A program made the translations under genes and the position numbers. The notes under the pieces are model-generated. The model searched no databases. It was not told the origin of the DNA and saw only the letters and a program-made list of their open reading frames with translations. Shown in pieces: positions 15,882-20,329 of a stretch of 64,000 nt of DNA; the stretch's first letter is position 1; each line of letters opens with the position of its first letter. Source of the DNA: a virus; the IMG/VR virus record IMGVR_UViG_3300031576_000004, positions 64,001-128,000 of that record; one strand, given 5' to 3'.

Positions 15882-17324
15882 GTGAATAAGAAGACGATCC
15901 GTGGCAAGGACTACGAAATCACTATGTCTCCGATGTCTCCAGAAGACATAAAGAAATTAACCGAAAAGACAGATCTCGTAGGCATAGAAGGATTAACAAT
16001 GGATGTTTCATTTGAATGGAGCGAAACAGGAGACAAAATGCAAGGATCGTCAATTGGAGCGATGGAAGCTGTAGAGGTAGCTCGTCCTAGCAACGAGCCT
16101 CCGATGCAGGCAACAAAGGCCGAGAGAAATCGGCCAATGATTAGGAACAAGCTCGATAAATCAAAGATGGTTACACATCCACTTGGCATCCCAGGTGGAT
16201 TTAGCTCTCAGTTCCACTTCAAGCCTCAATCCATGATTGAGTACACCATCGCCATTAAGGGCGCTGCGGATCTCTTCCAGCAAATGGACTATGTCAACGC
16301 TGGACCGAGAAACTACCTGCAAGTGGGACTAATGGAACACCAGGAATGCTTGGCAAATGGAGCAGCCGTTAAGAACATAGATGGGCATCTTACATCAGTT
16401 GTTCTTTCTACGAATCCCGACAACGGTATCTTCTCCGCTTCATTCCATAGTTACAACGAAGATGCCATGCAGAAGATGGCCAGCGAGTTTCATCGCGTTT
16501 GCAGCGAGGGAAACTTTTACCGTGGGAAGCATCTTAAGGCTATGGACTTTGATTGCCCACAGCCTCTGGTATTCCTATCTCCTCCAGCAAATCCTCTAAT
16601 CTACGGATTCAAGGAAGAGCAGGATGCAATTAATATGCATGCTGTTCGGTATTTCGAATGTGAAGAGATCCATAAGATCGCCCCTCAGAGAGGAGTTCTT
16701 CTCTATGGGCGTCCAGGCTCTGGAAAGAGTCTATTGGTCTCAAAGACGAAGTACGAATGCCTACAGAAAGGCATTACAGTGGTTGAGGCAAGCATCGAGG
16801 GTATGCGAGAGATCGGTAAGTGGTTCGCTCTTATCGAAGCATGGCTTGCCCCTGCCCTAGTTGTCCTTGAGGACGTGGATCTTATTGGTGGAGACAGGGA
16901 TATTCCTGAACTGCCCCACCAGCTTACTACAGATCTTCTGTCCAGCCTTGGCGGCAACACCAGGCGCATTAATCCCATCGTGACCATTGCCACGACCAAC
17001 CGCTTGGACTCTCTCGATAACGCATTCCTTCGGGCTCGGCGAATGGACAAGGTTATGGAGATCAATGGTCTCCAGCCTGATTTTAAAGCCGAGTTGTTCC
17101 GCCGGCATGGGATGAAGGTGACAGAACAGGCTCTTCAAGCCGCGGTTACTCAGCTCGGACCAGACACTACTGGAGCCGACGTTGAAGAGATTTCTGTCAG
17201 CACTCTGACCTATAGCCATTTCGGAATGCCACATGAAGAGGCCTTCACCAAGAGCCTGGGAGAATGGGCTAAGGGCCATTCCGCTAAAGCAAATCTTGGC
17301 TTTAACAAGAAGCAGCAAGACTAA
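15882..17324 (+). CDS. AAA+ ATPase (FtsH/Cdc48-like domain)
   Basis: Walker A GRPGSGKS, Walker B VVLEDVD, TTNRLDSLDNAFLRARRMD second region of homology. Confidence 0.9.
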   Translation: MNKKTIRGKDYEITMSPMSPEDIKKLTEKTDLVGIEGLTMDVSFEWSETGDKMQGSSIGAMEAVEVARPSNEPPMQATKAERNRPMIRNKLDKSKMVTHPLGIPGGFSSQFHFKPQSMIEYTIAIKGAADLFQQMDYVNAGPRNYLQVGLMEHQECLANGAAVKNIDGHLTSVVLSTNPDNGIFSASFHSYNEDAMQKMASEFHRVCSEGNFYRGKHLKAMDFDCPQPLVFLSPPANPLIYGFKEEQDAINMHAVRYFECEEIHKIAPQRGVLLYGRPGSGKSLLVSKTKYECLQKGITVVEASIEGMREIGKWFALIEAWLAPALVVLEDVDLIGGDRDIPELPHQLTTDLLSSLGGNTRRINPIVTIATTNRLDSLDNAFLRARRMDKVMEINGLQPDFKAELFRRHGMKVTEQALQAAVTQLGPDTTGADVEEISVSTLTYSHFGMPHEEAFTKSLGEWAKGHSAKANLGFNKKQQD

Positions 17325-17329
17325 CCTAT

Positions 17330-17518
17330 CCGTGTGGCTGCGAGGAAGGACTCGCAACAGTTAATAGAACAGAAAGGCACGGCTATCTGGTGGTTCCAGA
17401 TAGTTGTAATGGTCAATCTCCTATTGGTTGGAATGTGTCGCCAGCGGGCGGCCTCCGCAAATAGCCTCACCAGCCCTGAAAGCGGAAAGCCGGTGTCAAG
17501 TCCGGTCCACACGGGCCA
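17330..17518 (+). ncRNA. tRNA-like structured RNA B
   Basis: CCGTGTGG/CCACACGG stem plus GCCA end; TGCGAG/CTCGCA hairpin; T-arm-like GCCGG-TGTCAAGT-CCGGT; long central insert. Confidence 0.6.
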
Positions 17519-17575
17519 TAGCTACTCAACATATTTATAACTATATTTATAGGAGGATTCGCAGCGGAGACTTAA

Positions 17576-18325
17576 ATGAAACTTACGAGTAAGGATCTTG
17601 AAGAAGTTTATGAGGGCGAGACTCGGTTTGTTAAGGCAAAGGCGATGTTCGTTACCCCTCTGGTTGGCGGCGTTCCTGCCAGCCGTGAGGGTGTAGAGAA
17701 CTATGTCGAGTTCGCCATGAATCTTGTCCGTGACTCCCAGGAGTTCAAGGACAAGGTAGCCGAGATCTTGAAGGAAGAGATCGGCGAGAGAGAGATCAAG
17801 CCAGATGAGGGCGAGAAGGATGAGGTTGCGTCCTATGGCGTTAACTGCATCCGCAAGGATAAGTTCGGCCATTTCCTGATGGACTTCCAGATCAAGGCCA
17901 ACCTGAAGTGCGCTGCATCAAGGATCGGGCTATTCGTGGCCGATAAGGCCGCCGGCCGTAAGGCTGGAGCCAAGGGAGATATGGCTGAGCTCGGACGAGT
18001 TCACGCTATCGGTGCCTCATTGAGGGATGTTGAAAACAAGAGGAAGATCTATCTTCTTCAGAATGGCGGAACCCCAGTAAAGACTGTCTATGAGAAGTTC
18101 ATGGGCAAGGTGAGCAACGCCTCTGGCTCTCACTCCATCGTCCATGACTCTGAGGTCGCCCCTGCTGGAACCTGGTTCGAATTCGAGTTCAGGGCTCCGG
18201 ACAAGCGCCTCAAGGCTGAGGACTTCAAGCGCATCTTCGCGCACTCTGGTATTATCGGCTTCGGTTCCGCTCGTTCTCTGGAGCGCGGCAAGGTCGAGTA
18301 TCAGGAAGTTGAGATCGAGGATTAG
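17576..18325 (+). CDS. stand-alone RAMP/Cas7-group-like protein
   Basis: FVTPLVGG, FQIKANLK, SEVAPAGTWFEFEF and C-terminal Gly-rich loop GFGSARSLERGKV follow the Cas7/Csm3-type motif order. Confidence 0.7.
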   Translation: MKLTSKDLEEVYEGETRFVKAKAMFVTPLVGGVPASREGVENYVEFAMNLVRDSQEFKDKVAEILKEEIGEREIKPDEGEKDEVASYGVNCIRKDKFGHFLMDFQIKANLKCAASRIGLFVADKAAGRKAGAKGDMAELGRVHAIGASLRDVENKRKIYLLQNGGTPVKTVYEKFMGKVSNASGSHSIVHDSEVAPAGTWFEFEFRAPDKRLKAEDFKRIFAHSGIIGFGSARSLERGKVEYQEVEIED

Positions 18326-18334
18326 TTAGTAATT

Positions 18335-18477
18335 GGTTGGCGGCGGCGTGGAGAGCAGACACGCTTAAACAATACTGCGGATCCTACCCAATCACTGGAA
18401 CAGGTAGATTGAAGCCTATTGTTTTGCTGGACCCAGTGAATTCCAGATAGCCAGAGTAGCGCCTGGCCCGCCAACCA
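18335..18477 (+). ncRNA. tRNA-like structured RNA C
   Basis: GGTTGGCGG/CCGCCAACC(A) stem; GCGTG/CACGC hairpin; GCCAG-AGTAGCGC-CTGGC arm. Confidence 0.55.
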
Positions 18478-18497
18478 ATCTTTTTTGAAATTAGTTG

Positions 18498-18526
18498 TTG
18501 ACACCTATCCCATAGAATGCTAAAGT
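18498..18526 (+). promoter_or_regulatory. sigma70-type promoter of the tRNA operon
   Basis: TTGACA-17 bp-TAAAGT with TG extended -10. Confidence 0.75.
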
Positions 18527-18543
18527 TCGCCCCGAGGAGATCC

Positions 18544-18669
18544 ATGCTTTCATATAGGAAACCCTTTATTCAATTGTCGTGCGTGTGGGGAGAAAGCCTC
18601 CCACTACGCCCGATAACGCTCCATTCCGCCGGTCAGGCGGATAATACAAAGGAGCGGAGACTGGGATAA
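18544..18669 (+). CDS. leader peptide of the tRNA array (41 aa)
   Basis: SD GAGGAG 18534-18539; MLSYRKPFIQLSCVWGESLPLRPITLHSAGQADNTKERRLG*; 39 distinct codons, all 20 amino acids. Confidence 0.8.
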   Translation: MLSYRKPFIQLSCVWGESLPLRPITLHSAGQADNTKERRLG

Positions 18670-18736
18670 CGGGTTCCGAACTAGAGATAAAAGGAACCCG
18701 AAATCCCTGAAAAGGAATTTCGGGTTTTTTGTTTTT
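18670..18736 (+). terminator. attenuator: antiterminator versus intrinsic terminator
   Basis: CGGGTTCC(18670-77)/GGAACCCG(18693-700) competes with AACCCGAAAT(18695-704)/ATTTCGGGTT(18717-26) plus T-tract. Confidence 0.8.
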
Positions 18737-18774
18737 ACCTAGGACGACGAAAGGACGGTGCGGAAGAAATAACT

Positions 18775-18849
18775 GGGTCCTAAGCATTAACAGTGATGCA
18801 GTTGGCTCTTAACCAACAGAAGAGGGTGCGATTCCCTCAGGACCCACCA
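18775..18849 (+). tRNA. tRNA-Lys(CUU)
   Basis: cloverleaf, GTTGG-ctCTTaa-CCAAC, CCA. Confidence 0.9.
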
Positions 18850-18851
18850 AT

Positions 18852-18926
18852 GGGCTGTAAGCTTTAAAAGTGAAGCAGTTGGCCTTTAACCAACAGAACT
18901 CGGAGCGTTACCGAGGCGGCCCACCA
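18852..18926 (+). tRNA. tRNA-Lys(UUU)
   Basis: GTTGG-ccTTTaa-CCAAC, CCA. Confidence 0.85.
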
Positions 18927-18941
18927 ACTAATGATTTAAAC

Positions 18942-19017
18942 GGTGCTATGGTGTAGCGGCTCTGCATGCCTGGTTGTCAACCAGTAGGTCCGAGTTCGAC
19001 TCTCGGTAGTACCGCCA
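18942..19017 (+). tRNA. tRNA-Asp(GUC)
   Basis: anticodon loop ttGTCaa, TTCGA T-loop, CCA. Confidence 0.9.
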
Positions 19018-19032
19018 GATTAGATCGGTTCG

Positions 19033-19046
19033 GTTCTTTGAAAACT
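19033..19046 (+). promoter_or_regulatory. rrn-type boxA-like antitermination site
   Basis: GTTCTTTGAAAACT near the start of the tRNA operon. Confidence 0.55.
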
Positions 19047-19109
19047 TTGCGTGCGGGAACACCTGACTGAAGGAACTTCAGTAGGCCCGCATGATGTTGT
19101 GTGGTAAAT

Positions 19110-19185
19110 GCGCGCTTAACTCAGCGGCTAGAGTGCCTCTTTTACACGGAGGAAGTCAGGGGTTCGAGTCCCTTAGCGCGTACCA
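19110..19185 (+). tRNA. tRNA-Val(UAC)
   Basis: ttTACac loop, CCA. Confidence 0.9.
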
Positions 19186-19187
19186 GT

Positions 19188-19262
19188 TGCCCTGTCGTCT
19201 AATTGGCAAGACGCGAGACTTTGGATCTCGCTATTCAGGTTCGAACCCTGGCGGGGCAACCA
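19188..19262 (+). tRNA. tRNA-Gln(UUG)
   Basis: ctTTGga loop, CCA. Confidence 0.9.
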
Positions 19263-19272
19263 ATTTAAATAT

Positions 19273-19347
19273 CGGGCTCTAGGCTCGGAGTGAGCCGCTT
19301 GTTTCGGGAACAAGAGGCGGCGTGTGCAACTCACGCGAGCCCGACCA
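19273..19347 (+). tRNA. tRNA-Pro(CGG)
   Basis: ttCGGga loop, CCA. Confidence 0.85.
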
Positions 19348-19348
19348 T

Positions 19349-19423
19349 TCAGGAGTAGTTCAATTGGTAGAACGACAGACTCTGGATCTGTAGATCTTGG
19401 TTCGATTCCAGGCTCCTGAACCA
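19349..19423 (+). tRNA. tRNA-Gln(CUG)
   Basis: ctCTGga loop, CCA. Confidence 0.9.
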
Positions 19424-19442
19424 ATAGTAAACGATAAAATAT

Positions 19443-19517
19443 GGACCTGTAGCTCAAGGGTCAGAGCACGTGCCTTATAAGCACTAGACGGTGGTTCGAC
19501 TCCACCCAGGTCTACCA
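19443..19517 (+). tRNA. tRNA-Ile(UAU)
   Basis: ctTATaa loop, A73, CCA. Confidence 0.85.
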
Positions 19518-19518
19518 T

Positions 19519-19592
19519 GCGGGTTTAGCTCAAAAGAAGAGTGTTAGCGTGACATGCTAAAGACAGAGGAGCGTTACCTCTAACCCGCACCA
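19519..19592 (+). tRNA. tRNA-Val(GAC)
   Basis: gtGACat loop, CCA. Confidence 0.85.
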
Positions 19593-19593
19593 T

Positions 19594-19668
19594 CCACCCT
19601 TAACATAGAAGTCTATGTGCCTGTCTGATACGCAGGAAATCGTGGAGCGTTACCACGAGGGTGGACCA
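19594..19668 (+). tRNA. tRNA-Ile(GAU)
   Basis: ctGATac loop, CCA. Confidence 0.85.
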
Positions 19669-19687
19669 ATATAACAGGAGTTTATTC

Positions 19688-20056
19688 ATGCCATACAAAG
19701 ACCCAGCCATTCAGAGAGCATTCCAAAACAAATTCTTAAAAGAAAGACGGGATCTATGGCTAGCATCTAATGGCCCATGCTCCTGCGGATCTCGAATAGA
19801 TCTTCAAGTCGACCATGTGGATCCAAGCAAAAAGGTGGATCATAAAGTTTGGTCATGGTCAGAAAAAAGAAGAGCCGAAGAGTTGTCTAAATGCCAAGTT
19901 CTTTGCAAGAAGTGTCATAGAAAAAAGACGAACAAAGACAACAATTATGGACAAATCCACGGCACATATAATTCGTATAAACGATATTGTTGCCGGTGCG
20001 CTCCATGCAAAAAAGCTTCGGCAGAAGATAGAAGAAGGTGGAAGCGAAATAGATAA
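19688..20056 (+). CDS. HNH endonuclease inside the tRNA array
   Basis: SD AGGAG; CSCG...VDHVDP...CQVLCKKCH. Confidence 0.8.
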   Translation: MPYKDPAIQRAFQNKFLKERRDLWLASNGPCSCGSRIDLQVDHVDPSKKVDHKVWSWSEKRRAEELSKCQVLCKKCHRKKTNKDNNYGQIHGTYNSYKRYCCRCAPCKKASAEDRRRWKRNR

Positions 20057-20059
20057 CTT

Positions 20060-20134
20060 CGGGGTGTAGCTCAGAGGAAGAGCGCCTGGTTTGGGACCAG
20101 GAGGCCGAGATATCATAATTCTCCACCCCGACCA
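20060..20134 (+). tRNA. tRNA-Pro(UGG)
   Basis: ttTGGga loop, CCA. Confidence 0.85.
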
Positions 20135-20136
20135 AT

Positions 20137-20212
20137 GGTGGCTATAGCTCAAGTAGTAGAGCACGGGTCTGTGGAACCTGTTATGCGAGTGCAAGTCTCG
20201 CTAGTCACCCCA
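20137..20212 (+). tRNA. tRNA-His(GUG)
   Basis: ctGTGga loop, G-1/C73, CCA. Confidence 0.9.
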
Positions 20213-20221
20213 ACACAAAGT

Positions 20222-20328
20222 GCGCCGACCGATCGGATGGACGATCAGTGGGGATATCCCTTACCCATGAATACGCCCGAAAGGGGAATAGTGGGATAGC
20301 CAGAATCAATCCTGGCGCGGCGTTACCA
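20222..20328 (+). ncRNA. tRNA-like structured RNA D
   Basis: GCGCCG/CGGCGT stem, GATCG/CGATC hairpin, GCCAG-AATCAATC-CTGGC arm, ACCA end; no standard anticodon arm. Confidence 0.5.
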
Positions 20329-20329
20329 A

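Follow-up and report, generated by a model that had tools for sequence, protein, structure and literature searches.

What controls the expression of a large tRNA array in a phage genome? To our knowledge, the regulation of phage tRNA genes is essentially unknown, and the retention of large arrays is itself debated, the proposals being that they compensate for codon usage, replace a degraded host pool or permit escape from anticodon nucleases. The stretch of DNA analysed here (the window) comprises 64,000 nucleotides, bases 64001-128000 of a 163,302-bp IMG/VR phage record (49% G+C), and derives from an uncultured phage that we label G000. It contains a short leader ORF that sits about 10 nt downstream of a sigma70-like promoter and upstream of a strong terminator and 41 tRNA genes. 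Our analysis shows that this leader is real and conserved; it is built like an attenuator, and the diversity of its codons, which is frame-specific and matched to the tRNAs, exceeds chance. We propose, with a probability of roughly 0.5, that it constitutes a ribosome-mediated attenuator of the trp/his type that gates the tRNA array, and that its regulatory codons are a near-non-redundant sample of the tRNA species encoded in the array.

The elements of the locus are collected in Table 1. An original prediction, made from the sequence alone, had listed a promoter, a Shine-Dalgarno (SD) sequence, an ORF, two pairing strands and a terminator, and all were found in place. A minor correction concerns the start of the ORF: an ORF listing lengthens the frame upstream to an ATG at 18517, and since that codon lies within the promoter spacer, the usable start is the ATG at 18544. 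The promoter matches the consensus at 10 of 12 positions, carries a TG preceding the -10 element and is the top + strand site within 17300-25700; judging from its sequence, the transcript probably starts at about 18533-18535. The order and spacing of promoter, SD, ORF, antiterminator arm and terminator are those of classical attenuators.

Table 1. Elements of the leader and tRNA array in the window, and of the homologous leader in the relative L009.
Feature	Position	Strand	Basis and remarks
sigma70-type promoter, TTGACA-17 nt-TAAAGT, extended -10	18498-18526	+	consensus scan; -35 at 18498-18503, -10 at 18521-18526
Shine-Dalgarno, GAGGAG	18534-18539	+	4 nt ahead of the ATG; at the very start of the predicted RNA
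Leader ORF, 41 sense codons + TAA	18544-18669	+	sequence; ATG at 18544, TAA at 18667-18669
Segment 1, predicted anti-antiterminator	18557-18570	+	truncated (to 18680) and full-length folds; codons 5-9; pairs with the stop-codon region and segment 2
Hairpin A, within the ORF	18574-18616	+	folds; present also in L009
Hairpin B, within the ORF	18617-18656	+	folds; holds the 12-nt block AGGCGGATAATA common to both phages
Segment 2, CGGGTTCC	18670-18677	+	sequence, folds; immediately 3' of TAA
Segment 3, GGAACCCG	18694-18701	+	perfect complement of segment 2; overlaps the terminator 5' arm
Predicted 2:3 antiterminator	18670-18677 : 18694-18701		-14.3 kcal/mol
Intrinsic terminator	18691-18738	+	folds, terminator scan; 14-pair stem 18695-18726, then the T run TTTTTTGTTTTT
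tRNA array, 41 genes, 40 anticodons, 20/20 amino acids	18775-23421	+	ARAGORN, Rfam and two loops read by eye
tRNA-Pro-TGG	20060-20131		Rfam only, read by eye
tRNA-Cys-GCA	21593-21666		Rfam only, read by eye
L009 leader ORF, 45 codons	L009 5955-6092		called by a gene caller
L009 segment 2, GCTTCTTT			folds; directly past the stop codon, as in G000

The size of the array was established with ARAGORN at default and relaxed thresholds and with Rfam, the anticodon loops of the two tRNAs found by Rfam only being read by eye, and the recount returned the numbers of genes and anticodons originally claimed. The first gene of the array, a tRNA-Lys at 18775, is separated from the terminator by 39 nt that hold no promoter-like site. 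A consensus scan of 17300-25700 found no further strong + strand promoter ahead of or within the array, and array transcription must therefore cross the leader terminator. A second strong sigma70-like promoter (TTGACA-17-CATTAT, 23453-23481) lies past the last tRNA and before an ORF at 23465-23974, so that the array looks like a single unit between two promoters.

Several tRNA genes have features of their own. The array includes a tRNA-Ile with a genome-encoded TAT anticodon (19443-19517), which reads ATA, a codon that occurs once in the leader, and the relative described below has a counterpart at L009 7396-7470. The T-arm of the tRNA-Phe (20371-20393) reads CCAGG-AGCGTTA-CCTGG, AGCGTTA standing where a TTCRANY loop is usual; L009 shares this motif, and exact copies are present in 66 IMG/VR contigs, the majority with tRNA arrays of unrelated phages, which indicates a widespread phage tRNA variant. 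A weak, sub-cut-off match to YrlA, a Y RNA-like family (32 bits, 20507-20620), overlaps two tRNA-Gly genes.

The leader ORF of G000 uses 39 distinct codons in 41 positions, repeats only CTC and GGA, and encodes all 20 amino acids; these counts agree with those first reported, and the codon list likewise bears out the pattern described with them, in which a single codon is used from each two-fold NNY pair and both from AAR, CAR, GAR and AGR. For 41 draws from 61 equal codons, the exact probability of obtaining at least 39 distinct ones is 9.5e-6. As one G34 tRNA reads both codons of an NNY pair, such pairs can be merged, and the leader then samples 38 of 45 decoding units against an expectation of 26.2 +/- 2.1 (P = 4.9e-9, or 1.3e-8 under the ORF's own position-specific base composition). 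By ordinary wobble rules, it samples 36 of the 40 anticodons of the array, compared with a random value of 23.9 +/- 2.1 (P = 1.7e-9). The four anticodons not sampled are Val-GAC, Gly-CCC, Thr-GGT and Leu-TAA, so that both the match and the misses named in the prediction hold against the confirmed array set. For two leader codons, CCC and GCC, the array provides no Watson-Crick cognate. No cluster of regulatory codons is present in the G000 leader, and the analogous feature is its match to the downstream tRNA set.

This codon content stands out against the rest of the genome and against the other frames of the same DNA. Among 86,029 stop-free stretches of 41 codons, taken from the whole genome in six frames, 38-39 distinct codons are reached only at the leader locus, as are 33-36 sampled tRNAs, and the highest distinct-codon count elsewhere is 37, in a single stretch. 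The other two sense frames of the leader hold 32-33 distinct triplets and 27-28 decoding units, equal to the random expectation, and the antisense frames hold 28-33 units, against 38 in the frame of the ORF. Because the excess is confined to that frame, a general demand for non-repetitive RNA is not the explanation. The frame-specific statistics and the conservation described below exclude a chance ORF, and an antisense ORF at 18566-18787 is unsupported, all features of the element being on the + strand.

The RNA downstream of the ORF is arranged as a switch. As the original prediction had pointed out, the strand adjacent to the stop codon can pair with the 5' arm of the terminator; the complementarity is perfect, and a T run follows the terminator stem. 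When the 27 nt upstream, from the stop codon to the terminator arm, were shuffled, 0 of 3000 shuffles matched the antiterminator, and folding of the whole leader RNA departs from that of dinucleotide shuffles by z = -5.1. The A-rich 5' flank makes the hairpin terminator-like on the - strand too. The three-strand model put forward at first lacked segment 1, which is predicted here. In folds at growing length, 1:2 pairing appears once segment 2 is out and 2:3 pairing once segment 3 is out, and the full-length fold combines 1:2 with the terminator (3:4). The predicted 1:2 helix has imperfections, and at intermediate lengths the RNAs of both G000 and L009 reach their energy minimum with 2:3 paired, so that thermodynamics does not decide whether an untranslated leader terminates or is read through. 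Hairpin B is a possible pause hairpin. A cmscan of 18000-26000 against Rfam 15 at E <= 1 gave no match in 18498-18740, and a T-box riboswitch (RF00230) was rejected on the same grounds, its covariance model having no match there at E <= 1.

Conservation of the element could be assessed in a single relative, found via homologues of the AAA ATPase encoded two genes upstream of the leader. This relative, which we refer to by its locus L009, is also an uncultured phage; L009, L005 and L015 are loci of one 190,922-bp Logan contig from a sample unrelated to that of G000. Protein identity between the two phages is 56% for the AAA ATPase and 73% for an HNH protein encoded where the array ends, and the order of the tRNA genes is shared (Lys, Lys, Asp, Val, Gln, Pro, Gln, Pro, Ile, Val, Ile, Pro, His, Phe, Ala ... 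Leu, Arg blocks). A homologous leader lies directly ahead of the first tRNA-Lys of L009. Its promoter, TTGACA-18-TAAACT with TG, occupies the same place as in G000, GAGGAGA is identical in both phages, and the distance from SD to ATG is kept. The leader peptides are 41% identical, their difference in length is due to in-frame indels of 3 and 9 nt, and nucleotide differences fall on codon positions 1, 2 and 3 in the numbers 16, 16 and 22. By this sequence comparison the peptide appears weakly constrained, as leader peptides usually are, and its fast change fits an ORF in which translation matters and the product does not.

The RNA switch has been preserved through turnover of its sequence. Segments 2, 3 and 4 of the two phages are unrelated in sequence, and the pairing logic is kept. 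The predicted 2:3 antiterminator of L009 has an energy of -17.7 kcal/mol, matched by 2 of 3000 shuffles; its leader folds with z = -6.0 relative to dinucleotide shuffles, and stepwise folding gives the same order as in G000 (1:2, then 2:3, then 1:2 with the terminator). Segment 1 of L009 lies in the SD/start region instead of codons 5-9. RNAalifold on the two sequences recovered hairpin A and the terminator, and over the consensus as a whole both partners have changed in six pairs; hairpin A contains one compensatory pair and several one-sided changes. The terminator hairpin of L009 is strong (-24 kcal/mol), with only four U, five nt past the stem, and it fails a simple terminator scan. Rfam at the gathering score matched only tRNAs and the tmRNA on L009.

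Codon diversity is the property in which the two leaders differ. The L009 leader has 34 distinct codons in 45 (P 0.25 uniform, 0.04 under its own composition) and 33 decoding units (P 0.011 and 0.005, respectively), and it samples 33 of about 43 array tRNAs (P 0.004), leaving 10 unsampled; Val and Cys codons are missing altogether. A few stretches inside tRNA genes at this locus score as high as the leader, and the frame control has the same sense as in G000, with 33 units in the ORF frame against 22-26 in other sense frames and 23-27 in antisense. Spreading of the leader over many tRNA species thus seems common to both phages, and of the two only G000 has near-limit codon sampling. The prediction had expected related leaders to retain the hairpin pair and the codon diversity as the peptide changed. 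The hairpin pair, together with promoter, SD and ORF, has been kept and the peptide has diverged, but codon diversity is modest in L009, and the proposed 'pan-codon' property is extreme only in G000. Two variants of L009, L016 and L017, are on contigs that stop short of the leader. The element is represented by two genomes that share ancestry.

Neighbouring genes and RNAs show further parallels between these phages. A long tRNA-like element precedes the leader promoter in both (window 18335-18477; L009 5647-5830); it begins GGCGGCGGCGTGG and ends near CCA and a T run, and the transcription unit upstream may terminate there. A tmRNA lies past the array in G000 (25105-25495; Rfam, 103 bits) and just ahead of the leader in L009 (5240-5632; 82 bits). 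The tag encoded by the G000 tmRNA is ANSNVINGSFGSRAGVVAMAA, and reading the resume frame of L009 by eye gives a closely similar tag ending in VAMAA; the differing tag reported by ARAGORN for L009 is probably wrong. The HNH endonuclease at the array end of G000 (199 aa, 23976-24575) shares about 50% identity with thousands of HNH proteins, many labelled Planctomycetota, a hint at the host phylum. Just upstream of the element, a 249-aa protein without a Pfam match (17576-18325) has 18 homologues at 38-48% identity, which sit in unrelated phage-like contexts without tRNA arrays. The contig of L009 also encodes a Ro60/TROVE-vWA protein (L005 13550-15109), a few kb from the array.

What has been observed here, namely the elements of the locus, the conservation they show, the pairings open to them and codon statistics specific to one frame, leads us to infer translation of the ORF, its coupling to transcription, a choice between termination and readthrough, and a physiological trigger. 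The attenuation model postulates that host RNA polymerase would start at the leader promoter and that a ribosome would load at the SD, which lies at the transcript's 5' end. In both phages the stop codon is directly followed by segment 2, which a ribosome positioned on that codon would cover. With prompt decoding, the ribosome at TAA would mask segment 2 and, after release, segment 1 would recapture it; whether masked or captured, segment 2 would leave segment 3 free, the terminator would be completed, and transcription would stop near 18735 with the array off. A ribosome held before about codon 37 would instead disrupt segment 1 and leave segment 2 free, so that 2:3 could form, no terminator would arise, and polymerase would enter the 41 tRNA genes. 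On this model the phage probably makes array tRNAs only while ribosomes decode slowly. Because tRNAs are both the product and the leader's own reading requirement, the arrangement would exert negative feedback on decoding capacity, matching tRNA supply to decoding demand and responding to the loss of almost any single tRNA.

More tentatively, and with somewhat less confidence than we place in attenuation as such, the leader may be a sensor of the whole code, which would detect the shortage of any single tRNA, bring about transcription of the full replacement set and be turned down again as the phage's own tRNAs restore decoding. Proposed triggers are host anticodon nucleases, tRNA degradation during takeover and over-demand; the tie to anticodon nucleases is purely conjectural. 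Single codons cause little delay under partial tRNA depletion, and classical attenuators use tandem codons. Delays at single codons would be small unless a tRNA is nearly absent, which is a weak point and counts against the attenuator reading. The outcome of a stall in the middle of the ORF is also not obvious, since neither segment 1 nor segment 2 is covered once the ribosome has stopped past segment 1, and the claim that a stall at any upstream codon would signal has to be narrowed, the last three or four codons being too near segment 2 to do so. In sum, the attenuator as originally read gains from the conserved unit, the stepwise 1:2, 2:3 and 3:4 order and the frame-specific diversity, and the extremeness of its codon sampling is not seen beyond G000.

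Among the alternatives, the one that survives best is that the attenuator senses overall translation speed or ribosome availability, near-complete codon sampling being a lineage-specific accident or a by-product of non-repetitive RNA. Leaders that sense general stalling are known, antibiotic-responsive leaders for example, and it is the switch architecture that is common to both phages, not the extreme diversity (34 codons in 45 in L009). We nevertheless regard this explanation as unlikely: probabilities of 1e-9 to 1e-8 are hard to call an accident, the excess is limited to the ORF frame in both phages whereas non-repetitive RNA would lift all frames, and the use of one codon per NNY pair and both per NNR pair tracks the tRNA set.

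Hairpins A and B, including the identical 12-nt block, are the best conserved part of the leader, the whole of which is strongly structured (z = -5 to -6), and classical attenuators do not need internal hairpins of this kind. These features would be expected of an RNA switch that works without translation, in which a protein, a tRNA or a small molecule is the signal read by the hairpins and alternative pairings, the ORF being incidental. Such a switch would leave unexplained why SD and ATG are kept at the same spacing, why indels are in frame and preserve the open frame, why segment 2 begins exactly past the stop codon in both phages and why codon diversity is frame-specific; neither a T-box nor any other Rfam family matches the leader, and we give this reading a still lower probability than general stalling.

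Least probable of all, and in our view quite doubtful, is a free-standing small gene, for a 41-aa protein or an sRNA of about 200 nt, with some other route of expression for the array, such as a phage polymerase or processing of longer transcripts: promoter and terminator do delimit a complete unit of about 200 nt, the ORF of L009 was called as a gene by a gene caller, and terminated attenuator RNAs can act in trans, as outlined for rnTrpL (PMC6614838), but the peptide is poorly conserved and lacks the third-position bias typical of a functional protein, has no relative in 1.84 billion representative proteins except that of L009, and would account neither for a stop-adjacent antiterminator kept through sequence turnover nor for tRNA-matched codon diversity, and the first tRNA begins just 39 nt past the terminator, with no promoter-like site in the gap.

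Attenuation by a translated leader has close parallels in known systems. The trpL, hisL and pheL leaders of E. coli and Salmonella share with the G000 element a promoter-proximal short ORF with an SD, four RNA segments, predicted in G000 to form a 1:2 pairing, a 2:3 antiterminator and a 3:4 intrinsic terminator, a segment 2 within the footprint of the ribosome at the stop, and a controlled product that is needed for translation of the leader. In contrast to them, the G000 leader has no run of codons for a single amino acid, its 41 codons sampling 36 tRNAs mostly once each; it is phage-borne, would control tRNAs instead of biosynthetic enzymes and has two conserved hairpins within its ORF. Multivalent attenuators, such as the ilvGMEDA leader (Ile/Leu/Val) and the thr leader (Thr/Ile), resemble it in sensing several aminoacyl-tRNAs with one leader, but they do so for two or three amino acids by means of clustered repeated codons, whereas G000 samples nearly the whole code without repeats. 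In ermC-type leaders, vmlR, bmrB and PA5471.1 (upstream of armZ/mexXY), a stall anywhere in a short leader ORF likewise changes the state of an RNA switch and activates the genes downstream. Those leaders respond to drug-bound ribosomes, often at particular peptide motifs, and control resistance genes; we know of no codon-diversity signature described for them. T-boxes are also transcription attenuators that read the state of tRNA, but they bind uncharged tRNA directly, do not involve an ORF and control aminoacyl-tRNA synthetase and amino-acid genes, whereas the G000 element has an ORF. Full-text searches of the literature found neither leader-peptide attenuation of tRNA genes nor a leader that samples the whole genetic code. 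The best reading of the G000 leader is that the logic of the trp operon has been extended from one amino acid to nearly the whole code.

Searches for further relatives define how widely this element is distributed. Among 50,697 deposited phage records, blastn with 18300-19100 gave no match, no close relative of G000 was found, and tblastn with the neighbouring AAA ATPase returned only domain matches of at most 39% identity; G001-G009 are not close kin of G000. Among viral contigs, no related loci were retrieved with the 249-aa protein, with the AAA ATPase or with an HNH alignment, and an AAA profile found only distant cellular AAA proteins in genome contigs. A profile of the two leader peptides, run against the 1.84 billion representatives, retrieved only L009's own peptide, whose cluster has one member. 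DNA patterns for the conserved leader blocks had 5 hits among viral contigs and 58 among metagenome contigs, all of which we attribute to chance, there being no wider similarity and no tRNAs nearby. No tRNA array was within reach in the contexts of homologues of the 249-aa protein (L002-L004) or of distant AAA homologues (L006-L008, L232, L233). In the 66 IMG/VR contigs that share the tRNA-Phe T-arm motif, blastn and tblastn found no homologous leader, and in one such array family (L183) obvious matched leader ORFs were not seen. Generality was also approached with a crude, scripted screen, in which short ORFs preceded by an SD were rated by their agreement with the amino acids of the following tRNA block: across 71 tRNA blocks in five further phages, the true pairings scored no better than permuted ones, and no codon-matched leader ORFs emerged. 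Together with the L183 family, this result indicates that the device is not general and is at most lineage-restricted.

The statistical signal in G000, 36 of 40 tRNAs sampled in 41 codons and in one frame only, is strong enough to warrant a test at the bench. If the attenuation model is true, classical attenuation would be widened from one amino acid to the whole code, and the leader would offer, in a single transcript, a natural readout of tRNA availability for use in cell-free systems with defined tRNA sets. For the phages themselves, an array made on demand as decoding slows would provide a direct and testable answer to the question of why such arrays are kept.
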